Shown here: piece by piece, positions 8,072 through 58,630 of the stretch | Numbering within the stretch: the first letter of the stretch is position 1 | Layout: each line of letters opens with the position of its first letter | Origin: Vulcanimicrobiota bacterium | GTDB lineage: Bacteria; Vulcanimicrobiota; Vulcanimicrobiia; Vulcanimicrobiales; Vulcanimicrobiaceae | Direction of reading: 5' to 3' | Assembly (NCBI GenBank): GCA_963713685.1 | Contig: CAVQMS010000001.1 | Span: forward strand, 511,203-575,202 | Length of the DNA: 64,000 bases | Notes under the pieces: model-generated | What the model was told of the DNA's origin: nothing | The model's database searches: none | What the model saw: the letters and a program-made list of their open reading frames with translations, nothing else | Program-made: the position numbers and the translations under genes

Positions 8072-8743
8072 ATGTTTTCGGGATTTATGGGCCTCATGCA
8101 GCAGGGCGGCTGGGACATGTGGCTGCTTTTGCTCATTTCGATCGTCGGTCTCGCGGTCGTCATCGAGCGGCTGGTCTTCTTCGGGATGCAGCATGGCGAC
8201 ACGAAGGGCCTGTTGCGCCAAATCGGCACGAAGGTTTCGGAGGACGATCTCGACGGAGCCATCGCGCTCTGTAAGAAGAACCGCGGAATGCTTCCGCGGA
8301 TTCTTGAGTTCGGGCTTCGCCGCGGTGAGAAAAACCGAACGGACATCACCGACGCGCTCTCGATCGCACTCATGGAACATCTCAATTCGCTGGAGCGCAA
8401 CCTCGCCATCATCGGCACGATCGCCGTCATCGCGCCCTTCGTCGGGCTCTTCGGCACCGTCTTGGGCATCATCCGGGCGTTCCAAGACATCGCGCTCAAG
8501 GGCAACTCGACGCCGGCCGTCGTGGCCGCGGGCGTTTCGGAAGCGCTCATCACGACCGCCACCGGCCTGATTATCGCCGTTATTGCCGTCGTTTTCTTCA
8601 ACTTCTTCAAGTCGCGCATCAAGAACTACAACCAAGAAATGATCGTCGCCGCCAACCAGCTCGCCGAAATGCTGCACTTCCACAACACCGGCGCGCCGAT
8701 TCCGACGGACCTCTATCAGCCCACGAGAGCCACGGCCAAGTAA
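8072..8743 (+). CDS. exbB: MotA/TolQ/ExbB proton-channel protein
   Basis: 223 aa with three hydrophobic helices. Signature LAIIGTIAVIAPFVGLFGTVLGIIRAF. GGAGG lies upstream of the ATG. Confidence 0.9.
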   Translation: MFSGFMGLMQQGGWDMWLLLLISIVGLAVVIERLVFFGMQHGDTKGLLRQIGTKVSEDDLDGAIALCKKNRGMLPRILEFGLRRGEKNRTDITDALSIALMEHLNSLERNLAIIGTIAVIAPFVGLFGTVLGIIRAFQDIALKGNSTPAVVAAGVSEALITTATGLIIAVIAVVFFNFFKSRIKNYNQEMIVAANQLAEMLHFHNTGAPIPTDLYQPTRATAK

Positions 8744-8761
8744 GACCGGAGAGGCACGACC

Positions 8762-9172
8762 GTGGGACTGCTTTCGGCACAACAAGAGCAGGAGGTAATG
8801 GCGGAGATCAACATCACGCCGTTCACCGACGTACTGCTCGTTTTGCTCATCATCTTCATGATTCTCGCCGCGTTGGTAGCGCCGCCCGGTTTCGAAAAAG
8901 AACTGCCCAACAAGAACCCCAATAGCTCGAGCATGAACAAGAACAAGAACGATATCGAAGTCGATGTCAACAACAAGGGCGTGATCTTCGTCGACGGAAC
9001 CAAAACCGACGAGGTCGGCGTTTATCGCGTCATTTACGATGCCTCGAAAAAGAAGCCGCACCACCACGTTGCCGTCGTCGCTGACGCGAAGGCGCCTTAC
9101 GGCATCATCATTCGAATTCTCGACGCCGCCAAGCAAGCCGGCTTGGAAGACGTCGGCTTCGTAACGTCCTAG
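8762..9172 (+). CDS. exbD: ExbD/TolR biopolymer transport protein (copy 1)
   Basis: EINITPFTDVLLVLLIIFMIL transmembrane motif plus a periplasmic domain. The GTG start leaves a short cytoplasmic N-terminus, as usual for ExbD. Confidence 0.88.
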   Translation: MGLLSAQQEQEVMAEINITPFTDVLLVLLIIFMILAALVAPPGFEKELPNKNPNSSSMNKNKNDIEVDVNNKGVIFVDGTKTDEVGVYRVIYDASKKKPHHHVAVVADAKAPYGIIIRILDAAKQAGLEDVGFVTS

Positions 9173-9183
9173 GAGGGTAGCAC

Positions 9184-9609
9184 GTGGCCGTTTCCACCGG
9201 TGGAGGCGAAGATGAAGTAATGTCGACGATCAACATCACGCCGTTTACGGACGTGTTGTTGGTGTTGCTCATTATTTTCATCATTTTAGCGTCGGTCACG
9301 AAAGAACCCAGGCTGCCTGACGCCTACAATAAGGACAAGGTTCAGCCCTCACAGATCGTCGTCATCATCGACGAGCACGATCACATTCAGATCGGATCCA
9401 ACACCGTATCGATCGCCGACGCAAAGGGGGCGTTTGCGCAGCTGCAAGACGCGACGGACCATAAGTTCAAGAGCGTCATCATCAAGGCCAATCCCAAAAC
9501 GAGCTACGGCGTGATCCTGCAGTTGATGGACGCTGCAAAGTCCGTGAACCTCACCGACTTCGGCCTGGCGAACCACGTCCAGGGCACCCCCGCGGGGACG
9601 AACCAGTAG
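9184..9609 (+). CDS. exbD: ExbD/TolR biopolymer transport protein (copy 2)
   Basis: TINITPFTDVLLVLLIIFIIL transmembrane motif. The C-terminal segment KANPKTSYGVILQLMDAAK is typical of ExbD. Confidence 0.88.
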   Translation: MAVSTGGGEDEVMSTINITPFTDVLLVLLIIFIILASVTKEPRLPDAYNKDKVQPSQIVVIIDEHDHIQIGSNTVSIADAKGAFAQLQDATDHKFKSVIIKANPKTSYGVILQLMDAAKSVNLTDFGLANHVQGTPAGTNQ

Positions 9610-9612
9610 CTG

Positions 9613-10341
9613 ATGGCCAAGCGCGGCTCTCCTTACATTACGACCGGCGAACGGGTCCGAAGCTTTATCGGCTGGGCCTTCGTGATCTCATTGGTCGCGC
9701 ACTTAGCGATCGGCTCGGTGCTGCCGAACTTCGCGCAGCATCACGAGGAGCAGCAAGTGGAGAAGGTGACGATGGCCAAGAAGACGCGCGTGCGCGTCCC
9801 GACGCCGCCCCCACCCACGCCGACTCCCCCGCCGACGCCCACGCCGAATCCGCGGTCGACGCCGCCGCCGAAAAAAGTAGAGCTGCCGCAGCCCAAGCTC
9901 AAGGTCAACCTGGTACACACGAGCAGCAAATCGGCGACCGGATCAACCGAAAATACCGTTGCGCAACCCAAGTCCGGCAACGAAAACGGCGCGCCGCAAG
10001 GCGTGGGAACGGGGCCGCCGCAGCCTACCGCAGCGCCGGGAACGCCCAAGCCGGCCTGCGCGAACCCGAACGTCGAGGCGACCGTGACCAATCCGGTGCA
10101 ACCCGACTATCCGGAATCGGCGCGCGATCTCGGCCTTGGTGCCGTGACCGTCGAGGTAGAAGTGACGGTCGGTCCGAGCGGCAATCTCATTACGGCAAAG
10201 GTTTACAAGAGTTCCAGCAACATGGCGATCGATCAGGCGGCACTGCGTGCGGCTCGGCAGTCAGCGTACTCGCCGAAGCTCGTGGAGTGCCAGCCGACGC
10301 AGGGTGATTATCTCTTCCGCGCGGATTTCCAACCCGACTAA
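9613..10341 (+). CDS. tonB: TonB family energy transducer (copy 1)
   Basis: TM helix with an SxxxH motif (SLVAH). Pro-rich rod PTPPPPTPTPPPTPTPNP. TonB_C domain PDYPESARDLGLGAVTVEVEVTVGPSGNLITAKV...AIDQAALRAAR. Confidence 0.88.
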   Translation: MAKRGSPYITTGERVRSFIGWAFVISLVAHLAIGSVLPNFAQHHEEQQVEKVTMAKKTRVRVPTPPPPTPTPPPTPTPNPRSTPPPKKVELPQPKLKVNLVHTSSKSATGSTENTVAQPKSGNENGAPQGVGTGPPQPTAAPGTPKPACANPNVEATVTNPVQPDYPESARDLGLGAVTVEVEVTVGPSGNLITAKVYKSSSNMAIDQAALRAARQSAYSPKLVECQPTQGDYLFRADFQPD

Positions 10342-10362
10342 TCTGCCCGCGTCCCATGAACT

Positions 10363-10989
10363 ATGAGACGCATCCCGCGTTTGCTGGTGATAGCGTTTGC
10401 GCTCTCGCTGCTGCTGCACCTCATCCTCGCGCTCGTCCTTCGCCCGACAACACCGACGACGCAAAGCCAAGCTGAGTTCGTCTCGATCGAGCATCGCCCC
10501 GCGACAATCGCGGTAACGAGGCTGCCGCCTCCGCCACCCCGTCCGAAGCGAACGCCGGCGCCGCTGGCGCCAAGTTCGGCTCCGCCGCGAGCGCGCAAAG
10601 GCCTCGCGGCACCGCCCGGCCCGGCGTCCGGCGCCGCTTCCGTCGCCCAAACGCCGGCCGTAGCTTCGCCCACACCCGCACCGGCGGCGGTCGCCAACGC
10701 CGCATGCACGCAGCCCAACGCCGCTGCGGCTGTGGCTTCGTCACCCTCGCCACCCGACATCACGCCGGACGCGCGCACGGCCGGCACGAACGGCGTCGCG
10801 TTGGTAAAAGTACAGCTCGATCCGGCCGGACAAGTGACGAATGCAGGGGTGATGCAGAGCACCGGCAACTCATCGCTCGACCTCGCTGCGGTAACGATGG
10901 CACGCGACGTGCATTATTCGCCCGCATTGCACGACTGCAAACCCGTTGCCGGTGAATACACCTATAGTGTAAAGTTTGTCGCGTGGTAA
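10363..10989 (+). CDS. tonB: TonB family energy transducer (copy 2)
   Basis: TM helix with SxxxH (SLLLH). Pro/Ala-rich linker. TonB_C domain GVALVKVQLDPAGQVTNAGVMQSTGNSSLDLAAV. Confidence 0.85.
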   Translation: MRRIPRLLVIAFALSLLLHLILALVLRPTTPTTQSQAEFVSIEHRPATIAVTRLPPPPPRPKRTPAPLAPSSAPPRARKGLAAPPGPASGAASVAQTPAVASPTPAPAAVANAACTQPNAAAAVASSPSPPDITPDARTAGTNGVALVKVQLDPAGQVTNAGVMQSTGNSSLDLAAVTMARDVHYSPALHDCKPVAGEYTYSVKFVAW

Positions 10990-12998: not shown

Positions 12999-14263
12999 AG
13001 CGAATCCCGAGCTACGCGGAGGCACAAGCCTATCTGCTGGGGACGATCGACGAAACCGTCTCTCGGCGCACGTCGTATAAGCTCGATCGTATGCGCGTCT
13101 TTCTCCGCGAGCTGGGCGATCCGCATCGCGCGTATCCGACGATCCACGTCGGCGGCACGAGCGGCAAAGGCTCGACCTGCACGATGATCGCCGGCGCGTT
13201 GCAGGCGGCGGGCAAACGGACCGGGCTGCATACGAAGCCGCACCTGCATGCCATGACGGAGCGCGCGCGCATCGACGGCGCGCCCATCGGGCCCGAACGC
13301 TTCGCAGCGTTATTGGACGCGATGATGCCGGCCATCGAGCGAACCGTCGTGCAGTGCGGGCGTCCGACGTACTACGAAACGCTCCTCGGGCTGGCATTCA
13401 AATACTTCGCCGACGAACGCGCGGACGTCGCCGTGATCGAAGTGGGATTGGGTGGACGGCTCGACGGCACGAACGTCATCGAGCCGGTCGTCGCCGCGAT
13501 TACGTCGATTGGTTACGACCACACCGACGTGCTGGGAACCACGCTCGAAGCGATTGCGTTCGAGAAAGCCGGCATCGCAAAGCCCGGAGTGCCGCTGGTT
13601 CTGGCTTCCGTACCGCCGGCGGCGCGAGCGGTCGTCGAACGCTACGCGGGCGAAGTTGGCGCGCCGATCGTGTACGTTTCCGACGCGGCACGGCGTAGCG
13701 CTGCGCAGCTTTCGTTGCAAGTGATCGGCATCTTCCAGCGCGAGAACGCCGCGACCGCAGTGACGGTTCTCGAACAGCTCGGCGGCGAGCTGCGTCCGAG
13801 CCGCGACGAAGTCGCGCGAGCGTTCGGTGAGGTCGCTCTGCCCGGAAGAATGGAGCTTTTTTCCGGGCACCCCAGCGTCGTTTTCGATATCGCGCACAAT
13901 ATCGAAAAAGCCGCGTCCCTCGTCGCCTCGCTGCGTGAAACGTTTCCGGCGCGCCGGATTCACTACGTCGTCGCGATCGGTGAAAGTAAGGACGCTCGGC
14001 GGATTCTGGAGATCCTCGCTGGCCTGCCTTCGACGTTCACGTTCACCTCATTTGCGGCAACCGGGCGGAGAGCGATCCGCCCGCAACGATTGGCGACCAT
14101 CGCGCAATCGTTCGGCGGGTGGGGCCGTGCGATTTCGGATCCCGCCGAGGCTTTGACCGTTGCACGACGCTTGGCGGCCGTGGACGACGTCGTCGTCGTA
14201 ACGGGGTCCACTTTCGTGGTTGCAGGATTGCGCGAATGGTACGTGCCGGCGGCGGTATCCTGA
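12995..14263 (+). CDS. folC: bifunctional folylpolyglutamate synthase / dihydrofolate synthase
   Basis: Mur-ligase P-loop IHVGGTSGKGST. Also IEVGLGGRLDGTNV and ITSIGYDHT. Confidence 0.92.
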   Translation: MKRIPSYAEAQAYLLGTIDETVSRRTSYKLDRMRVFLRELGDPHRAYPTIHVGGTSGKGSTCTMIAGALQAAGKRTGLHTKPHLHAMTERARIDGAPIGPERFAALLDAMMPAIERTVVQCGRPTYYETLLGLAFKYFADERADVAVIEVGLGGRLDGTNVIEPVVAAITSIGYDHTDVLGTTLEAIAFEKAGIAKPGVPLVLASVPPAARAVVERYAGEVGAPIVYVSDAARRSAAQLSLQVIGIFQRENAATAVTVLEQLGGELRPSRDEVARAFGEVALPGRMELFSGHPSVVFDIAHNIEKAASLVASLRETFPARRIHYVVAIGESKDARRILEILAGLPSTFTFTSFAATGRRAIRPQRLATIAQSFGGWGRAISDPAEALTVARRLAAVDDVVVVTGSTFVVAGLREWYVPAAVS

Positions 14264-14319
14264 GGGGCTCCCTCGAGCTGCGTGGCGGCCGCCTCCGCTG
14301 GGGCGCCCGCACCTATATT

Positions 14320-15099
14320 ATGGCGATCGTCAACGTCACTCCGGACTCGTTTTCGGGCGACGGTCTGGAAGATGCAGAAGCCGCGAGCGCACGCGCGACC
14401 GCGCAGTGGGGCGAGCACGCCGATATCTTGGACATCGGCGGCGAATCAACGCGGCCGGGGTATCGGCCGATCGACGACTCGGTCGAAATCGAACGCGTCA
14501 TCCCCGTGATAAAAACCGTGCGGCACGGCCTCCCGCAAGCACCGATCTCTGTGGACACGTATAAGCCGGCGGTCGCGCGCGCCGCCGCGGCTGCGGGAGC
14601 CGATCTGGTCAACTCGGTTTGGGGCGTTTCGGATCCGCTGTTGGACGTCGTTGCCGAGCTGGACATGCCGATCGTGGCGATGCACAATCAATCCGGCACC
14701 GTCTACGATGGCCCAGTCGAGGATGTGGTGTTGCGCTACCTCGACGACTGCGCGCGGCGAGCGACCTCACGCGGCATCCGGCCGGAACGGATTATCCTGG
14801 ATCCCGGAATCGGCTTCGGTAAGACCGCCGATCAGAACCTCGCCGTACTTCGAGCGTTGCACCGGCTCGTTGCTCTGGGCTTCCCAACGATGCTCGGGAC
14901 TTCGCGAAAGTCGACCATCGGAAAGCTGACCGGACGCGAGCCCGCGGATCGCATCTATGGAACCGTAGCCAGTACGGCGCTCGCCGTGCAGGCGGGCATC
15001 GATATCGTTCGCGTGCACGACGTTATCGCAGCGCGGGACGCGGTGGCTGTTGCGGATGCGATCGTGCGCGACTGGAGGCCGACGGGATGGATCGGATAA
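14320..15099 (+). CDS. folP: dihydropteroate synthase
   Basis: IVNVTPDSFSGDG, DIGGESTRPG, SVDTYK, ILDPGIGFGK, GTSRKS and RVHDV motifs. The ATG at 14320 is the first canonical start after the folC stop. The real start may be a non-ATG codon about 40 nt upstream. Confidence 0.9.
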   Translation: MAIVNVTPDSFSGDGLEDAEAASARATAQWGEHADILDIGGESTRPGYRPIDDSVEIERVIPVIKTVRHGLPQAPISVDTYKPAVARAAAAAGADLVNSVWGVSDPLLDVVAELDMPIVAMHNQSGTVYDGPVEDVVLRYLDDCARRATSRGIRPERIILDPGIGFGKTADQNLAVLRALHRLVALGFPTMLGTSRKSTIGKLTGREPADRIYGTVASTALAVQAGIDIVRVHDVIAARDAVAVADAIVRDWRPTGWIG

Positions 15100-15452
15100 G
15101 CCTGCGCGGCATTCGCGCATACGGTCGTCACGGTTACGAGGCGGCTGAGCGAGCGCGCGCGCAGCCGCTGGATATCGAGATCGGCGCACAAATCGATCTT
15201 ACGGCCGCAGCCCGGAGCGATGAGCTTGCCGACACCTTAGACTACGCTGCCTTACATGCGCGAGTCGTCGACGTCGTTGCGAACACGTCGTACGCGTTGC
15301 TCGAGCGTCTCGCAGCCGACCTGCTCCGCGCGGTCTTCGAGGACCGGAGAGTCGTGCGCGCCGAAGTTACCATAGCAAAGCCCGCCATTCTAGATGGCGC
15401 GACGGCGTCGGTAACGCTGGAGCGTGCTAACCCCGCTCACGAGGGGCGATGA
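15087..15452 (+). CDS. folB: dihydroneopterin aldolase
   Basis: ISLRGIRAYGRHGYEAAERARAQPLDIEI and DTLDYAAL motifs. 121 aa. Confidence 0.9.
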   Translation: MDRISLRGIRAYGRHGYEAAERARAQPLDIEIGAQIDLTAAARSDELADTLDYAALHARVVDVVANTSYALLERLAADLLRAVFEDRRVVRAEVTIAKPAILDGATASVTLERANPAHEGR

Positions 15453-16366
15453 GCGCACACCAAGCGTACGTGGGAATAGGTACGAATCTCGGCGACCGCG
15501 TTCGAAATGTCGAACGAGCCTTTGCAGCGGTCGGTCAATTAGGGACGGTCCTGCGCAAGTCCTCGATTTATCGCACGAAACCTTGGGGTAATACGCGGCA
15601 ACCTTGGTTCGCCAATGCCGCGGTTTTGGTCGAGACGGAACTCTCACCGCGCGCTTTACTCAACGGGCTGCAGGCGGCTGAAAAGAATCTCGGGCGCACG
15701 CCGAGCGAACGTTGGGGCCCGCGCGAGATCGATCTCGACCTCTTGCTCTACGACAATCTGGAGATCGACGAGCCGGACCTGCGCTTACCCCATGCGCGTC
15801 TCCACGAGCGCGCCTTCGTATTGGTTCCGCTGGCGCAAATCGATGCGCGCTTCGAAACGATGCGCGACGCGTTACCCATTGCCGAACTCGCGGGCGTCGT
15901 GCCTTGCGAAGGAGCCAGGTCCGACGGTTCTTTAGGCGAAAGCGTGTCGCCGATGTTCCCACGACTTAGTCATTCTGCTGGAGAGCGGGTGCGTGCGCTC
16001 GCGCGCTTTCTCGCTGAAAGCGATGTCGTTCGAGTGCGAATCGAGCGTCCGAATGACGAAATCGAAGTCGTCTCCCGGGTTGGTGCGAGCACCTCGTCAC
16101 GATCGACCGGCAAAGAACCAACGGAGACGGCCGCTCCGCGAATCGATACGATCAAAGCGGATCTCGTCGGAGTCTTTCACGCGAGCCGGCCCGCGCCGCT
16201 GGAAGGCGACGTCTTCGAATCGGATCGAGAGCTCGGTTATATCGAAGCACTTGGCATTCGCACGCCCGTTCACAGCATGGGTTCGGGCCGATTGGTTGCG
16301 GTGGCGACCGCCGACGGATCTCCAGTGGAGTACGGCCAGCCGCTGTTCTTGGTGGCGCGTGCGTAG
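15449..16366 (+). CDS. folK: HPPK (FolK) continuous in frame with an AccB/BCCP-like domain lacking the biotinyl-lysine
   Basis: Residues 1-165 are HPPK (AYVGIGTNLGDR, IYRTKPWG, REIDLDLLLYD, LPHARLHERAFVLVPL). Residues about 170-305 align by eye with BCCP: the N-domain VRALARFLAESDVVRVRIERPNDEIEVV and the C-domain IKADLVGVFHAS...YIEALGIRTPVHSMGSGRLVAVATADGSPVEYGQPLFLV. No stop codon separates the two parts. Internal in-frame GTG 15944 and ATG 15953 could give a separate product. Confidence 0.8.
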   Translation: MSAHQAYVGIGTNLGDRVRNVERAFAAVGQLGTVLRKSSIYRTKPWGNTRQPWFANAAVLVETELSPRALLNGLQAAEKNLGRTPSERWGPREIDLDLLLYDNLEIDEPDLRLPHARLHERAFVLVPLAQIDARFETMRDALPIAELAGVVPCEGARSDGSLGESVSPMFPRLSHSAGERVRALARFLAESDVVRVRIERPNDEIEVVSRVGASTSSRSTGKEPTETAAPRIDTIKADLVGVFHASRPAPLEGDVFESDRELGYIEALGIRTPVHSMGSGRLVAVATADGSPVEYGQPLFLVARA

Positions 16367-16377
16367 GGCGCTCTAGC

Positions 16378-17721
16378 TTGTTTCGAAAAGTTTTGATCGC
16401 GAATCGTGGCGAGATCGCGCTGCGTATCAATCGAGCTTGCCGTGAGCTCGGCGTGGCCACCGTGGCGATTTTTTCCGAAGCCGACCGCGATTCTATGCAC
16501 GTTCGGCAGGCGGATGAGGCCTTTTGTGTAGGGCCGGGACCGGCGGCGCGTTCCTATCTGAACATTCCCAACATCATTTCGACCGCGCTCATCACCGGTT
16601 GCGATGCGCTCCATCCCGGCTACGGCTTTTTGGCGGAAAACGCGCGCTTCGCGGAAATCTGCAACGATCACGGCCTGACGTTCATCGGGCCTAAGCCGAG
16701 CGTCATCGCGATGATGGGCGATAAGGCGACGGCGAAGCGCGTCGTGCGTGAGGCGGGCGTCGCTACCACGCCGGGCAGCGACGTTCTGGCTTCGGTGCAG
16801 GAGGCGCAAGCGGCGGCGGCTTCAATCGGTTATCCAGTGTTGCTCAAGGCGACGGCCGGCGGCGGCGGCAGAGGCATGCGCGTCGTTCACGATTCAGCCG
16901 ATTTGCCGCGAGCGTATGCGGGGGCGACGGCCGAAGCCGAAGCCAGCTTCAAAGACGGTCGCGTCTACCTCGAGAAATTGATTCTCGCACCGCGACATAT
17001 CGAAGTGCAAGTGCTGGGTGACGAGTTTGGGAATCTGGTCCACCTCGGTGAACGCGATTGTTCCGTGCAGAAACCGTCGCATCAGAAGATCATCGAAGAA
17101 ACGCCGGCACCCAACCTGGCCTCCGACACGCGCGCGGCACTGCACGAAATGGCGTTGCGGGCTTCTCGCCGCGTCGGGTATACCAACGCCGGAACGCTCG
17201 AATTTCTCACCCTCGGCCGCGACGCGTACTTCATGGAGATGAATACGCGGATTCAGGTAGAGCATCCGGTGACCGAGATGGTGTACAACATCGATCTCGT
17301 CAAGGAGCAGATTCGCATCGCCGCCGGCGAGCCGCTGGGATATGCCCAGAAGGACCTCGTCGCGCGCGGCCACGCCATCGAGTGCCGCATCAATGCCGAG
17401 GACCCGCAGAATCACTTTGCGCCCGCGGCGGGGACCGTCTCAAAGGTCGTTTTTCCGGGCGGTCCGGGCATTCGCGTCGATACCCATCTCTACGCCGGTG
17501 CGACGATTCCGCCGTATTACGATTCGATGATCGCCAAGGTCGTCGCATTCGGCGACACACGCGAGATAGCCATCGCACGGATGGAGCGCGCCTTGCGCGA
17601 GACGCTGATCGAGGGCGTGAACACCACCATCGCGCTCTGTCTGGAAGTTCTCTCGACTGCCGAGTTCCGCGAAGGGCGCTACGACATCGAGCTGTTGCTC
17701 AAGGAACCCTCGCGGTCGTGA
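16378..17721 (+). CDS. accC: acetyl-CoA carboxylase biotin carboxylase subunit
   Basis: KVLIANRGEIALRI, GYPVLLKATAGGGGRGMR and EMNTRIQVEHPVTE motifs. TTG start at 16378. Confidence 0.96.
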   Translation: MFRKVLIANRGEIALRINRACRELGVATVAIFSEADRDSMHVRQADEAFCVGPGPAARSYLNIPNIISTALITGCDALHPGYGFLAENARFAEICNDHGLTFIGPKPSVIAMMGDKATAKRVVREAGVATTPGSDVLASVQEAQAAAASIGYPVLLKATAGGGGRGMRVVHDSADLPRAYAGATAEAEASFKDGRVYLEKLILAPRHIEVQVLGDEFGNLVHLGERDCSVQKPSHQKIIEETPAPNLASDTRAALHEMALRASRRVGYTNAGTLEFLTLGRDAYFMEMNTRIQVEHPVTEMVYNIDLVKEQIRIAAGEPLGYAQKDLVARGHAIECRINAEDPQNHFAPAAGTVSKVVFPGGPGIRVDTHLYAGATIPPYYDSMIAKVVAFGDTREIAIARMERALRETLIEGVNTTIALCLEVLSTAEFREGRYDIELLLKEPSRS

Positions 17722-18119
17722 GCTCGCGCCGCGCCGCTCGCGAGCAAGCCCTACAGGTTCTCTATTCGGTCGTCGTGGGCTCTCGCGAGCCGCACGAGGC
17801 GCTGCGCGAAGTCGTCGGCGAGGATGCCGATGGGCCACAGCGCGCCTTCGTCGAGGAACTGGCGCTGGGCACGCTCGAATACGCATCCAGCGCCGACCGC
17901 ATCGTTGGTCCTCTTTTAGAAGGCTGGGCGATCGAGCGCCTGCCGACGATCGATCGATTGCTCTTAGAGATGGCTACATTCGAACTGCACTGCCGCCCCG
18001 AAACGCCGACTGCAGTAGCGATCAACGAAGCGGTCGCGCTAGCAAAGCGTTTTTCAACCGAGGACTCCGGGCGTTTCGTGAACGGAGTGCTCAGTGCCGT
18101 CGCCAATGCCAAGACGTAA
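17718..18119 (+). CDS. nusB: transcription antitermination factor NusB
   Basis: GTG 17718 overlaps the accC stop (GTGA). RAAREQALQVLYSV and VAINEAVALAKRFSTEDSGRFVNGVL motifs. Only the 3' part of listed ORF 17058..18119 is genuine. Confidence 0.9.
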   Translation: MSSRRAAREQALQVLYSVVVGSREPHEALREVVGEDADGPQRAFVEELALGTLEYASSADRIVGPLLEGWAIERLPTIDRLLLEMATFELHCRPETPTAVAINEAVALAKRFSTEDSGRFVNGVLSAVANAKT

Positions 18120-46921: not shown

Positions 46922-49015
46922 GTGTCATTTGCAATCGCCCGCGCCGGATTGCTGGCGGCGGCAATGCTCATTACGAGCATGTCTGTGGGACTGGCGGCAA
47001 CACCGGCAACACCAGTCGCGCAGACGAGTACGCCGGCTATGGATTTCGGCGCTCCCCCCGCGGGGCAGATTCCGATTCTCTTCAACGACCGCCACGTTTA
47101 CACCAAACCCGACGTGCTCAAGCAAGCTCGCGTGTTGGCCGCGCTCGTGCGGGGCGGCACGATCTTGATCCCCTTGCGCTCGATGTTCGAGCAGATGGGC
47201 GCGACGGTTTCCTACGATTCGTCCAGCAAGACGGCCACGGTGTCCAAATCGGGGGCCGAGGTGCGCGTTACCGTGGGCAAACCCGAAGTGATCATCAACG
47301 GCGAGTCGCGTCCGCTCGACGTGCCCCCGATCGTCTATAACGGCGTCGTACTCGTACCGGTCCGCGTGATCTCCGAAGGCATGGGCGCATACGTCCAATG
47401 GGTGCCCGACCGGCGGTTAGTGGTGGTCCGATATATTCCGGCGACGCCGCCGCCGGCTGAGGCTCCTCCACCGGCAGCTCCGGAAGCGACCCTCGCTCCC
47501 GCCCCACCGCCGCCGCCGAAGCCCAATCCCTTAACTCTGGGTGGATACGTGCGTTCGTATTACTTCACGCGGCAAAATGCGTCCAATAATCCTGGAGCAG
47601 AATTCAACTTTACGCCCGGGGCCAAATACAGTTCGGCCGGCGTCAATCAGGCAAGTTGGAACACCGCCCTCGCCGTGCATGGCGATTACAATTTTCCGGG
47701 CGGCGGCTGGATAATCGGTGGCACGTACCTTTACGCGAATCCGATCAACGGGCCATGCGTAGTTCCCGCCAATCACGCCAAAGGCGCCGTCTGCGTCTCG
47801 CAGGCTCCACCCAATACCAATCCCGACGATACACTCCCCGGCTTTACGATGAGCACCTTTTACGAGGCGTACCTGAAATATAAAGCCTACGGCTGGTCGG
47901 GAACGCTCGGCAATCAACTCTTCAATACCCCGTGGGCGAACCCATCGGATTCGCGTCTGAAGCCAGTCGCGTTTCAGGGTGGCGATCTCGGCTACACTTT
48001 TCCGTCGGGCTTGACGTTCGAGGGCGCGGACATGCTCACGTTCCAAAACCGGACCAGCTCGGACTTTAGCCGGCAGACGTTGCTGACCAGCTATCCGGCC
48101 GGTTCGCCTGGCCTGGCTTCGAATATCCAGGTTCCGGGCGGAGCAGGCATCAACACGAACGGCTTTGCATTCGGCAAGGTCGGCTACAGCAATCCCGCCG
48201 GAATTTCTGCGGACGGTTACTTCTATGGGGTTAGCGATATCGCGAACATGTGGTGGTTTGACGGGAAGTACACGTTCTCGCCGAGCGGATGGGCGCCGTT
48301 CATCGCTCTGCAGGGCGGTTTCGAGAACAACGCGGGACAATCGTACATCGGAAAGATCAACAGCCAGGACGTCGGAGTGCAGCTGGGCGCCAACCTTACC
48401 AAAAACATCCAAATCGCCGCCGGCTATGACGAGATCCCCTGGCACACCGATTCGGTCTTCTTGCCCAAGAACGTAACGTGCAACAACTCCAACTTCCAGG
48501 TCAGCGCAAAGGCGAACTTCGCCTATTTGTTGCCAATGAACGCCCCGCAGTGTTTCACCCAGCCAAACGGCATGACTCAAATCTACTACGGCGGCTGGGC
48601 CAGCCCGTATACCGACAGCTATGCCACCGACCCGTTCTTCACGACGCAGATTTCGCAGGGTATGGCCGATCGGCGTGCGCCTGGAACGTCGTGGAAAGTT
48701 GGACTCACGTTTACTTCGACCAACAAGCGCTGGGTGTTCATTGCGAGCGACGCCTGGTACAATTACGGCAATGCGCTCGCTCCGGAAAGCACGAACGAGT
48801 GGAATCTTGACGGACAATACCACTTCAGCAAACCAGGGAAGGGAGCGTATCACGGTCTGCTGCTGCGCTATCGGTACGCGCAACGGTCTCTTTCAAACAC
48901 CTTTTGCGGCGCGGCCCAGACCAGCTGCCCGCCGGGATCTACCCTCGGGTCTAGCGAGTTTGGTGGGTTACCGCTGTTCAAGTACAATCGCGCGCAGTTG
49001 GAATACGACTTCTAA
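46922..49015 (+). CDS. outer-membrane protein, paralog 1: copper-amine-oxidase-N-like stalk domain, Pro-rich linker and putative beta-barrel
   Basis: GTG start after AAGGAG. Signal peptide. The stalk-domain motif pair is [27 protein letters not shown] and [20 protein letters not shown]. Linker [13 protein letters not shown]. The ~480-aa C-terminal part shows an alternating pattern and ends ...YNRAQLEYDF with a terminal Phe. Confidence 0.8.
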   Translation: MSFAIARAGLLAAAMLITSMSVGLAATPATPVAQTSTPAMDFGAPPAGQIPILFNDRHVYTKPDVLKQARVLAALVRGGTILIPLRSMFEQMGATVSYDSSSKTATVSKSGAEVRVTVGKPEVIINGESRPLDVPPIVYNGVVLVPVRVISEGMGAYVQWVPDRRLVVVRYIPATPPPAEAPPPAAPEATLAPAPPPPPKPNPLTLGGYVRSYYFTRQNASNNPGAEFNFTPGAKYSSAGVNQASWNTALAVHGDYNFPGGGWIIGGTYLYANPINGPCVVPANHAKGAVCVSQAPPNTNPDDTLPGFTMSTFYEAYLKYKAYGWSGTLGNQLFNTPWANPSDSRLKPVAFQGGDLGYTFPSGLTFEGADMLTFQNRTSSDFSRQTLLTSYPAGSPGLASNIQVPGGAGINTNGFAFGKVGYSNPAGISADGYFYGVSDIANMWWFDGKYTFSPSGWAPFIALQGGFENNAGQSYIGKINSQDVGVQLGANLTKNIQIAAGYDEIPWHTDSVFLPKNVTCNNSNFQVSAKANFAYLLPMNAPQCFTQPNGMTQIYYGGWASPYTDSYATDPFFTTQISQGMADRRAPGTSWKVGLTFTSTNKRWVFIASDAWYNYGNALAPESTNEWNLDGQYHFSKPGKGAYHGLLLRYRYAQRSLSNTFCGAAQTSCPPGSTLGSSEFGGLPLFKYNRAQLEYDF
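47042..47496 (+). repeat. near-identical nucleotide block shared with 49290..49744 (stalk domain plus linker of the two OMP paralogs)
   Basis: My manual alignment gives 11 mismatches and no indels over 455 nt. The barrel-coding parts of the two genes differ at many synonymous sites. Confidence 0.85.
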
Positions 49016-49169: not shown

Positions 49170-51269
49170 ATGAAGACTGCTTTTGTTCGCGTGGGCCTGA
49201 TCGCCGCGGCCCTCGTCGCGGCTGGCGCATCTGTAGGACTGGCGGAAACACCGGCCACACCAGTCGCGCAGACGGGGACGCCGACCGCCGATTTCGGCGC
49301 TGCCCCCGCGGGGCAGATTCCGATTCTCTTCAACGACCGCCACGTTTACACCAAACCCGACGTGCTCAAGCAAGGTCGCGTGTTGGCCGCGCTCGTGCGG
49401 GGCGGCACGATCCTAATCCCCTTGCGCTCGATGTTCGAGCAGATGGGCGCGACGGTTTCCTACGATTCGTCCAGCAAGACGGCTACGATGTCCAAATCGG
49501 GGGCCGAGGTGCGAGTTACCGTGGGCAAACCCGAAGTGATCATCAACGGCGAGTCGCGCCCGCTCGACGTGCCGCCGATCGTCTATAACGGCGTCGTACT
49601 CGTACCGGTCCGCGTGATCTCCGAAGGCATGGGCGCATACGTCCAATGGGTGCCCGACCGCCGGTTGGTGGTGGTCCGATATATTCCGGCGACGCCGCCG
49701 CCGGCTGAGGCTCCTCCACCGGCAGCTCCGGAAGCGACCCTCGCGCCTCCGCCGCCGCTGCCTCCGACACCCAACCCGTTTTCGATCCACGGATTCGTGC
49801 GCTCGTTCTACTTCACGCGCCAGAACGCGTCGAATAATCCGGGAGCACAGTTCAACTTCACCCCGGGAGCCAAATACAGCTCGGCCGGCGTCAACCAGGC
49901 GAGTTGGAACACGGCGATCGCCCTCGGCGGCGACTACAACTTCCCCGGCGGCGGCTGGGGCGTCGGCGGAACGTATCTATACGCCAATCCGATAAACGGC
50001 CCGTGCGTCGTTCCGGCCAACCACGCGAAGGGCGCCGTGTGCGTCACGCAAGTCCCGCCCAACACCAATCCCGACGACACGCTGCCCGGCTTTACGCTGA
50101 GCACGTTTTACGAGGCGTACTTGAAGTACAAGGCGTACGGCTGGGACGGCGCGATGGGCAACGTTTTGTTCAACTCGCCCTGGGCGAATCCGGCGGATTC
50201 GCGCTTGAAACCGGCGGCGTTCGAAGGTGGATACCTCGGCTATACTTTCCCAAGCGGTTTGACCTTTCAAGGCGCCGACATGCTCGCGTATGAAAACCGC
50301 ACGAGCTCGTCGTTTGGCCGGCAGACGCTGATGACGAGCTATCCGGCGGGCAATAACGGCTTAGCTCCCAACATCGTCGTTCCGGGAGGCTCGGGCATCA
50401 ATACCAACGGCTTTGCGATGGGCAAAGTCGGATACGCAAATCCTTCCGGGACCGGGCTTGCAGCCGATGGATACTTCTACGGCGTCAGCGATCTGGTCAA
50501 CATGTGGTGGGGAGACGCCAAGTACACCTTACCGGGAAGCTGGGCGCCGTTCATCGCGGTGCAAGGCGGAACCGAACAGAACGCCGGCCAGTCGTACATC
50601 GGCAAGATCAATAGCCAGGCCTACGGCGCGCAAATCGGAGCCACCATCGCGAAGAACTTCCAGCTTACCGTTGGCTACGACGCGATTCCGTGGAAGACCG
50701 ACACGATCAATCTGCCGGCGGGCGTGACCTGCAACAACTCGAACTTCCAGGTCTCGGCAAAGGCGACGCTAGCCTACGTCCTGCCGCTCAACGCGGCGCA
50801 GTGCTTCACCAACACCAACGGCACCACGCAAATCTACTACGGCGGTTGGGCCAGCCCATACACCGATAACTACGACAGCGATCCGCTCTTCACGACCAAC
50901 GTCACGCAGGGTATGGCCGACCGGCGCGCGCCGGGAACGTCGTGGAAAGCCGGTATTCAATACACCTCGAACAACCAGAAGTGGATCTTCATCGCAACCG
51001 ACGCGTGGTATAACTACGGCAACGCGCTGGCGCCGGAGAACACGAATACCTGGGTTCTCGACGGTCGCTATCGCTTCGGGCATGTCGGCAAGGGCCCGTA
51101 TCACGGCCTGGTCCTCCGGGATCGGTACATCCAGCGCACGCTCTCCAACACGTTCTGCGGGGCCAACGGCACGACGAGCTGTCCGCCCGGCGCTTCGATC
51201 GGCTCGTCCGAGTTTGGCGGGTTACCGCTGTTCAAGTACAATCGCGCGCAAATCGAATACGACTTCTAG
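49170..51269 (+). CDS. outer-membrane protein, paralog 2 (same architecture as 46922..49015)
   Basis: ATG after AGGAGG. Same domain order, same three Cys pairs, and ends ...[10 protein letters not shown]. The stop lies 10 nt before the cysP start. Confidence 0.8.
49290..49744 (+). repeat. second copy of the near-identical stalk/linker nucleotide block
   Basis: See 47042..47496. Confidence 0.85.
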
Positions 51270-58463: not shown

Positions 58464-58540
<77 letters not shown>

Positions 58541-58630
58541 ATGAGAGCGACTACACTACGACGGCGCGGGTTTCACCCCTGCCATAGGCGCGGGCGCGGT
58601 GCTCGCGGCATGGATGCCGAAGGCAGTCTA

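Follow-up and report, generated by a model that had tools for sequence, protein, structure and literature searches.

A conserved AccB homologue without the biotinyl-lysine precedes accC in Eremiobacterota and is fused to FolK in part of the clade

Heteromeric acetyl-CoA carboxylase (ACC) carries out the committed step of bacterial fatty-acid synthesis and is an antibiotic target, and the textbook assumption is that an accB gene lying next to accC encodes its biotin carrier, known as biotin carboxyl carrier protein (BCCP). The plastid heteromeric enzyme of plants also possesses BADC1-3, which are BCCP homologues that have no biotinylation motif and act as non-biotinylated, non-catalytic subunits. 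BADC binds biotin carboxylase (BC) and BCCP, and either inhibits the holoenzyme or helps to assemble the BC-BCCP subcomplex; a 2025 paper describes BADC subunits as unique to the plant enzyme. Here, we analyzed a 64-kb stretch of DNA (contig CAVQMS010000001.1 of a Vulcanimicrobiota bacterium from soil, treated below as a member of the phylum Eremiobacterota, 63% G+C; hereafter, the window) in which a folK open reading frame (ORF) runs in frame into an accB-like gene that lacks the codon for the biotin-accepting lysine and that is located directly upstream of accC. The accB-like part of this ORF and its lysine-less relatives are referred to below as AccB*.

Other described systems share single features with this locus. 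In Chloroflexus aurantiacus, four BCCP hairpins of the BC1 protein form an 8-stranded barrel, which tetramerizes BC and raises its activity (8HZ4), and this role of the hairpin is independent of the biotinyl core. BC1 itself is a fused BC-BCCP protein that carries biotin on K553 and occurs beside a stand-alone enzyme, BC2. For AccB*, a helix-and-hairpin module like that of BC1 is predicted, and the AccC of the window is nearest to the stand-alone BC2 (8HZ5). The module of BC1 is, however, fused to BC and to a biotinylated core, whereas AccB* is either a separate protein or fused to FolK, and is not biotinylatable. Actinobacterial acyl-CoA carboxylases, in turn, have small non-catalytic epsilon subunits that act as a "glue", assembling and activating a biotin-dependent carboxylase. 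These are unrelated to AccB* in sequence and fold, and their binding site is the carboxyltransferase/alpha-subunit interface, not BC by way of a BCCP-type module.

When searched as a single sequence, residues 214-302 of the 305-amino acid (aa) window protein gave only a weak match to BCCP, with 25.8-28.1 bits for TIGR00531 against a cutoff of 115.2 (E 1e-5) and 14.6 bits for the biotinyl domain profile PF00364 against a cutoff of 22.1 (E 0.03, i.e., below the curated cutoff). Homology was therefore tested further by means of a family profile, an AlphaFold2 model and Foldseek. A profile of 18 family members matched full-length E. coli BCCP (4hr7_B) with an E value of 1.1e-16, in two distinct stretches corresponding to the N-terminal module (21.3 bits, i-E 0.002) and the biotinyl domain. 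The AlphaFold2 model of AccB*, which was built on the 18-member family alignment, displayed predicted local distance difference test (pLDDT) scores of 93-98 across the last 75 residues; its N-terminus comprised a helix (residues 9-22) and a hairpin (strands 27-32 and 35-40), followed by a low-confidence linker (pLDDT <50). By Foldseek comparison with the PDB, the E. coli biotinyl domain 1bdo ranked first (target template-modelling score 0.79, root-mean-square deviation 2.4 A), and the top 19 matches were biotinyl domains of biotin-dependent carboxylases. Chance similarity, which the original prediction had named as a possible refutation, is ruled out by the profile match, the model and the Foldseek result, and the accB-like part is securely a true BCCP homologue. 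AccB* resembles E. coli AccB (1BDO, 4HR7, TIGR00531) in its helix and hairpin, its Ala/Pro/Ser-rich linker and its flattened beta-barrel domain, as well as in its site directly 5' of accC, its C-terminal "PVEYGQPLF" region and its "VG.F" strand. It differs from E. coli AccB in its E-A-L-G-I hairpin, in being fused to FolK in the window species and in having a "thumb" that is about six residues shorter in the HMMER alignment.

That alignment pairs the E. coli hairpin "vEAMKMmnq" with "iEALGIrtp" of AccB*. The E-A-L-G-I motif, with the codons gaa gca ctt ggc att, was found at exactly the position that had been claimed for it (Table 1). As the acceptor lysine is absent, AccB* cannot carry biotin. 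The sole lysine of the biotinyl-like domain is located in its first strand (TIKADL); it was considered as an alternative acceptor and rejected, given that this position varies to R, N or S among homologues. AccB* has the fold, architecture and operon position of an AccB protein, but has no acceptor lysine and scores below the curated cutoffs, so that annotation as a biotin carboxyl carrier protein is inappropriate. JGI annotates AccB* homologues as "biotin carboxyl carrier protein", and gene callers report the fused ORF as one gene with an HPPK domain only. Metabolic reconstructions would therefore credit genomes with a carrier that is possibly missing here, and would overlook the domain altogether in the fused species.

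An error at the motif or at the stop codon, or the decay of accB to a pseudogene, would be compatible with a single-sequence score so far under the BCCP cutoff (25.8 vs 115.2 bits). At least five contigs that were assembled independently nevertheless encode an identical 305-aa protein, namely contigs of at least four other samples and one of more than 1 Mb. A scan of one genome per species (GTDB) yielded 80 loci, 72 of them from Eremiobacterota, the closest of which (L001) lies on a complete 3.15-Mb chromosome (OY970335.1) and is 91% identical. In every one of the 72 Eremiobacterota species loci, the lysine column holds Gly, within a near-invariant hairpin of the form D-R-E-L-x-[YF]-[IV]-[ED]-[AST]-L-G-[IM]-R; none of these orthologues reads AMKM. 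The accC gene begins no more than 27 nucleotides (nt) past the AccB* stop codon in 66 of the 72. The five identical assemblies and the 72 glycines exclude a sequencing or assembly error.

Ratios of nonsynonymous to synonymous substitution (dN/dS) were estimated by the Nei-Gojobori method for nine species pairs of the fused clade. The biotinyl-like domain displayed the lowest values in the ORF (0.07-0.17), when compared with the FolK domain (0.10-0.41) and the AccB* N-terminal module (0.25-0.54); the linkers ranged from 0.14 to 1.2 at the junction and from 0.2 to 1.35 within AccB*. Strong purifying selection acts on the lysine-less domain, and no other part of the ORF is as constrained. These values, together with the confident domain model, exclude a pseudogenized accB, and artefact or decay is effectively refuted as an explanation. 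The loss of the lysine and its conservation are solid, and will be surprising to specialists. At a single locus (L027, 9917-10708), the accB* frame was seen to run about 300 nt into accC, which looks like a frameshift, be it an assembly error or a real accB*-accC read-through.

The origin of the lysine-less gene was examined in a wider set of relatives. An exhaustive phmmer search of 1.84 billion representative proteins returned 1039 matches, and 232 relatives were collected. Of these relatives, 150 have G in the lysine column, 30 have R, 27 have K and eight have N; A, S, H, Q, T or D occurs in 15, and three have a gap. The nearest lysine-bearing relatives read IEALKLRTP, are about 185 aa in length and come from the Ca. 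Eremiobacter lineage; no lysine-bearing relative closer than these orthologues was found among the proteins searched. The Ca. Eremiobacter loci and the window share the gene order moaC-mog-folC-folP-folB-folK(-methyltransferase)-accB-accC-nusB-PBP1-xseA-xseB, and in the AccC tree the Ca. Eremiobacter loci are sister to the Gly clade. Ca. Eremiobacter antarcticus carries Arg at the lysine site (IEALRLKNP). Given that a lysine- or arginine-bearing gene occupies the same syntenic site in the sister lineage, the window gene is an accB orthologue that has lost its lysine. The distribution points to a K-to-G change in the ancestor of a large Eremiobacterota clade, and to a separate K-to-R loss inside the sister lineage. 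The lysine- or arginine-bearing AccB proteins of Ca. Eremiobacter also have a strict C-terminal tail, E-P-P-R-[I/L/M], which is lacking from the Gly clade. FolK in this lineage is fused to an S-adenosylmethionine-dependent methyltransferase in a 441-aa protein (HPPK + Methyltransf_23/11/25); the coordinates at the two loci are 8679-10004 + 10001-10561 (L084) and 8775-9977 + 10001-10579 (L081).

Further lysine-less versions were found outside Eremiobacterota. Metagenome-assembled genomes of Chloroflexota have the arrangement pepP-efp-accB*-xseA-xseB, with a K-to-G change and without accC at the locus; in the cultured Dictyobacter aurantiacus the genes are arranged likewise, the change being K to N, again without an adjacent accC. 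The accB* start and stop codons overlap those of the neighbours in Chloroflexota (L078, 9932-10447; L090, 10001-10474; L091, 10001-10411). Armatimonadota versions have K to R or K to T, and one of them is followed by an accC match 528 nt downstream (L074). A separate and common class with the conservative K-to-R substitution, IEAMRLMN[DE], includes this Armatimonadota protein (L074, about 10001-10450) as well as P0147, P0155, P0184, P0186 and others. By these comparisons, loss of the acceptor lysine from the ancestral accB is recurrent and tolerated in Terrabacteria, with the protein being kept afterwards. At the 72 Eremiobacterota loci, and at some loci in Chloroflexota and Armatimonadota, the gene at the accB site encodes a protein that is unable to carry biotin; even so, it ranks among the best-conserved genes of its locus.

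Plant BADC offers the closest functional analogy to AccB*, in that both are BCCP homologues without the biotinyl-lysine. The original prediction had likened the domain to a BADC-type paralog. It is indeed a BCCP homologue that lacks the lysine, but it is the positional accB orthologue (folK-accB-accC-nusB) and not an extra paralog. In plants and algae, by contrast, BADC proteins are extra paralogues alongside BCCP1/2. Being a bacterial protein encoded at the orthologous accB site, AccB* has an independent and convergent origin, rather than one of descent from BADC. A literature search that covered few subscription journals found no paper on a lysine-less bacterial AccB or on a bacterial counterpart of BADC, in line with the suggestion that such a counterpart would be new.

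The FolK part of the ORF is complete. TIGR01498 matched residues 6-132 with 139.8 bits (cutoff 54.1) over profile positions 1-127 of 128, and PF01288 was covered from position 1 to 115 of 116 (E 2e-38). The frame then continues without an internal stop codon into the BCCP-like domain, as had been described from the letters of the window. In a model of the full-length protein, residues 145-175 displayed pLDDT scores below 50, i.e., the junction is predicted to be disordered; the FolK part of this model rests on very few sequences. Every FolK protein in the window species would accordingly carry AccB* as a C-terminal extension, in a protein of 33 kDa. Bifunctional FolK fusions are familiar as FolB-FolK (SulD of S. 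pneumoniae) and as HPPK-DHPS (plants and Plasmodium). FolK-AccB* is like these in joining HPPK to the product of a neighbouring gene; in the known cases, however, the partners are enzymes of the folate pathway, whereas here the partner is a homologue of a lipid-synthesis carrier (BCCP) that is not known to be linked to folate, and it is fused in part of the clade. To our knowledge, the combination of FolK and BCCP domains is not a described architecture.

The fusion had been put forward as a feature that might be conserved in related genomes. It does recur, since folK and accB* form one ORF in 29 of the 72 Eremiobacterota species, but it is not fixed across the family and is scattered over several clades. 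Among the remaining loci, the two genes share a frame and are separated by a stop codon in seven, and are in different frames in 10, whereas in 26 there is no folK within 1.5 kb upstream; a folK match was found about 2-5 kb upstream in at least 16 of these 26. The 18 species that surround the window in the AccC tree all carry the fusion, and the fused state occurs in at least three further clades amid unfused relatives. Unfused relatives with both genes in the same frame have a stop codon 2-3 codons ahead of the AccB* start, e.g., "...EANP*ASMPG" in L025 and L028 (asterisk, stop), so that one substitution suffices for fusion. The stop codon of folK has thus been lost repeatedly, which explains the fusion, and the fusion as such is probably incidental. 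It provides a clean natural case of two genes merged by repeated stop-codon loss with the downstream start kept.

This downstream start is well preserved. Most homologues in the databases are proteins of 134-141 aa that begin at the Met equivalent to ATG 15953, and this Met is kept in nearly all fused loci, as well as in unfused ones. Both of the candidate internal starts proposed earlier, GTG 15944 and ATG 15953, are located where they had been placed. The 24 nt before the AccB* start (15929-15952) contain an element that is conserved at the nucleotide level, gCGAA[A/T]CG; across 68 loci, positions -16 to -12 hold C in 45, G in 47, A in 52, A in 54 and A/T in 51. The element is unchanged whether it is translated (peptide [GR]-E-S-[VI]-x-x-M), non-coding with an in-frame TAG, in another frame or at a locus without folK. 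As it is the same in coding and non-coding contexts, the fused junction is the former AccB* leader, now read through. No canonical Shine-Dalgarno sequence precedes ATG 15953; other genes of the window show GGAGG-like sites only sometimes. RNAalifold found no consensus structure in the AccB* leader, and folds of single sequences displayed a short hairpin just 5' of the AccB* ATG. The retention of the start codon and of the conserved leader makes a separate AccB* of about 15 kDa likely beside the 33-kDa fusion, and free 15-kDa AccB* is probably made from the internal ATG as well.

An alternative is that the FolK-AccB* fusion has itself been selected, with the tethering of FolK to an AccC/AccB* complex, or of AccB* to FolK, serving to couple or co-regulate folate and fatty-acid synthesis, e.g., through stoichiometric co-expression, co-localization or allostery. 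The fixation of the fusion in the 18-species clade around the window and its presence in at least three other clades (29 of the 72 species in all) would fit this explanation, as would the location of folK directly upstream of accB* across most of the phylum and the occurrence of FolK in another fusion, HPPK-methyltransferase, in the sister lineage. However, 43 of the 72 species are unfused, close relatives of fused ones included, and in 26 of them folK is not within 1.5 kb. Furthermore, a single point mutation toggles between the fused and unfused states, the junction shows weak constraint and predicted disorder, and the retained AccB* start and leader argue that the free protein is still needed. 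We also know of no biochemical link between HPPK and ACC. Selection for the fusion is unlikely in our view.

AccC scored 650.4 bits with TIGR00514 (cutoff 626.5), and its alignment with E. coli biotin carboxylase (1bnc) retains MGDK, the Gly-rich loop, HQK, EMNTRIQVEHPVTE and ECRINAEDP, which we take to be the catalytic motifs of biotin carboxylase. Its best match in the PDB is Chloroflexus BC2 (8hz5). Judged by these motifs and scores, AccC is catalytically intact and highly conserved, and its gene follows directly upon the accB-like domain, as had been noted from the letters of the window (Table 1). At residues ~231-237, AccC has a one-residue insertion before the HQK lysine (QKPSHQK vs QR-RHQK), when compared with the E. 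coli, H. influenzae and Chloroflexus enzymes. The accC gene has a TTG start without an obvious Shine-Dalgarno sequence.

We propose that AccB* is a BADC-like, non-catalytic partner of AccC, and that some other protein, encoded elsewhere, has taken over as the carrier; in our estimation, this proposal stands a slightly better than even chance of being correct. AccC binding, a non-catalytic role, another carrier and dual expression are what we infer for AccB*. By analogy with E. coli BCCP and Chloroflexus BC1, the N-terminal helix and beta-hairpin of AccB* would still bind and bridge AccC dimers. Its biotinyl-like domain may still dock on carboxylase surfaces and modulate or assemble the enzyme, as BADC does. 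A different protein would carry the biotin, and the most plausible one is a fused BC-BCCP alpha subunit such as is common in Terrabacteria. AccB* would be translationally coupled to an intact AccC, and the FolK fusion would be a secondary event that followed the loss of the folK stop codon. An intact, highly conserved AccC means that a biotinylated substrate must exist, and the plant BADC precedent shows that a lysine-less BCCP homologue can be a genuine carboxylase subunit, one that perhaps competes with BCCP or keeps the BC-BCCP subcomplex together. Cultured Vulcanimicrobium makes ordinary iso-branched fatty acids, which implies a working ACC in the phylum. The "glue" or assembly role of BADC, which is equally documented, or the role of the BCCP N-terminal hairpin, fits at least as well as that of a "negative regulator", the role named for BADC in the original prediction.

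Several points weigh against this proposal. The strongest constraint lies on the C-terminal domain and not on the N-terminal hairpin module (see the dN/dS values above), so that a BC-bridging hairpin alone does not explain it. The Chloroflexota keep a lysine-less AccB without an adjacent accC, which hints that its function may not be tied to AccC. In combination, the constraint on the C-terminal domain and the accC-less Chloroflexota loci suggest that the conserved surface has a further partner. The leader element does not match a canonical Shine-Dalgarno sequence, and any part that it plays in initiation is putative. Finally, the window and the 10-kb flanks of the 72 loci yielded no second biotinyl domain and no birA, accA or accD, and the other carrier is an assumption. 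The searches behind the last point were as follows. A six-frame motif scan of the window contained no canonical lysine-bearing biotinyl hairpin. Within 10 kb of the loci, such a hairpin was absent from all 72 Eremiobacterota, and among the 80 loci it was found only in a Streptomyces outgroup (L080). Pfam scans of 20 large window ORFs and of five around the locus identified no accA, accD, birA or other biotin enzyme. Neither biotin nor ACC is annotated in the supplements of the Vulcanimicrobium paper. The flanks all come from one syntenic region, and thus say little about the rest of the genome.

These same searches bear on a second alternative, in which AccB* is the sole BCCP-type protein of the cell, and malonyl-CoA is made without tethered biotin (by use of free biotin or of another acceptor) or the AccB*-AccC pair has been recruited to another task. 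Neither the window nor 1.4 Mb of sequence flanking the loci of 72 genomes contains a canonical biotinyl domain. AccB* holds the only accB-accC locus, with no close lysine-bearing paralogue among the 1.84 billion representative proteins, and AccC and the AccB* hairpin are both highly conserved. Biotin carboxylase, however, uses free biotin very poorly (Km 11-17 mM for the Chloroflexus enzymes), and it is easier to account for so many independent losses of the lysine (to G, R, N, A and others) if a substitute carrier was already present. Moreover, fused BC-BCCP alpha subunits are common in neighbouring phyla, and the flanks that were searched represent a single syntenic region. We consider a cell with AccB* as its only BCCP-type protein to be quite improbable. 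If it were real, a whole clade would run an intact biotin carboxylase with a non-biotinylatable carrier, and in the window species the FolK fusion would further link the pair physically to folate synthesis.

A third alternative is that AccB* has been kept mainly as a regulator of operon expression, with its place in the carboxylase being vestigial. AccB of E. coli, studied by James and Cronan in 2004, reportedly autoregulates accBC through its N-terminal domain. The retained N-terminal module of AccB*, the conserved cis element in its own leader and its persistence beside efp and xseA without accC in Chloroflexota are all compatible with such a function. Regulation through the N-terminal domain alone nevertheless does not predict the pattern of constraint, as the C-terminal biotinyl-like domain, in particular its hairpin, is the most constrained part (0.07-0.17 vs 0.25-0.54 for the N-terminal module), and we give a purely regulatory AccB* little chance. 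Should AccB* instead be a non-catalytic carboxylase subunit, as we propose, bacteria would have evolved an equivalent of BADC independently and repeatedly, and the disputed role of BADC (inhibitor vs assembly factor) would be open to study in a much simpler system. Dictyobacter aurantiacus (K to N) is a cultured carrier of the gene, and Vulcanimicrobium alpinum, which represents the phylum in culture, is probably another.

The features of the locus are listed in Table 1. The setting is that of a folate operon, in which folC, folP and folB lie directly 5' of folK with overlapping stop and start codons. On the identical contig L086, folP is called as a protein of 287 aa.

Table 1. Coordinates in the window of the folK-accB* ORF, its parts and its neighbours.
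Feature	Position	Strand	Remarks
folP (dihydropteroate synthase)	14236..15099	+	PF00809 E 8.8e-69; ATG 14236 start verified
folB (dihydroneopterin aldolase)	15087..15452	+	PF02152 E 9.3e-26; 4-nt ATGA overlap with folK start
FolK domain, junction and full-length lysine-less AccB (AccB*), single 305-aa ORF	15449..16366	+	
HPPK/FolK catalytic domain	15467..15844	+	aa 7-132; PF01288, TIGR01498
Junction, aa 133-168: FolK C-terminal tail and former folK/accB* spacer	15845..15952	+	no stop codon
CGAAA core of conserved leader element	15937..15941	+	12-16 nt 5' of AccB* start codon
Internal ATG, conserved start codon of stand-alone AccB*	15953..15955	+	
AccB* N-terminal module, aa 169-208, helix and beta-hairpin	15953..16072	+	homologous to BCCP BC-binding/oligomerization module
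AccB* inner Ser/Thr/Ala/Pro-rich flexible linker, aa 209-232	16073..16144	+	pLDDT <50
AccB* biotinyl-like domain, aa 233-305, without acceptor lysine	16145..16363	+	Foldseek 1bdo, HMMER alignment
E-A-L-G-I hairpin replacing E-A-M-K-M	16244..16258	+	Gly269 codon ggc 16253-16255
accC (biotin carboxylase), TTG start	16378..17721	+	begins 11 nt past AccB* stop
nusB	17718..18119	+	PF01029 E 3.9e-30; GTG start overlaps accC stop (GTGA)

Elsewhere in the window, two tandem paralogous ORFs of about 698 aa each were found at 46922-49015 and 49170-51269 (+). The N-terminal part of each (residues 73-167) is a copper amine oxidase N1-type domain (PF07833, E 1e-26), the remainder being without a Pfam match. 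Rfam was blank at the folK-accB*-accC locus, and the sole Rfam/ARAGORN match within the 64 kb was a tRNA-Met (CAT) at 58464-58540 (-), which abuts an adenosine-deaminase-like gene starting at 58541 (+).

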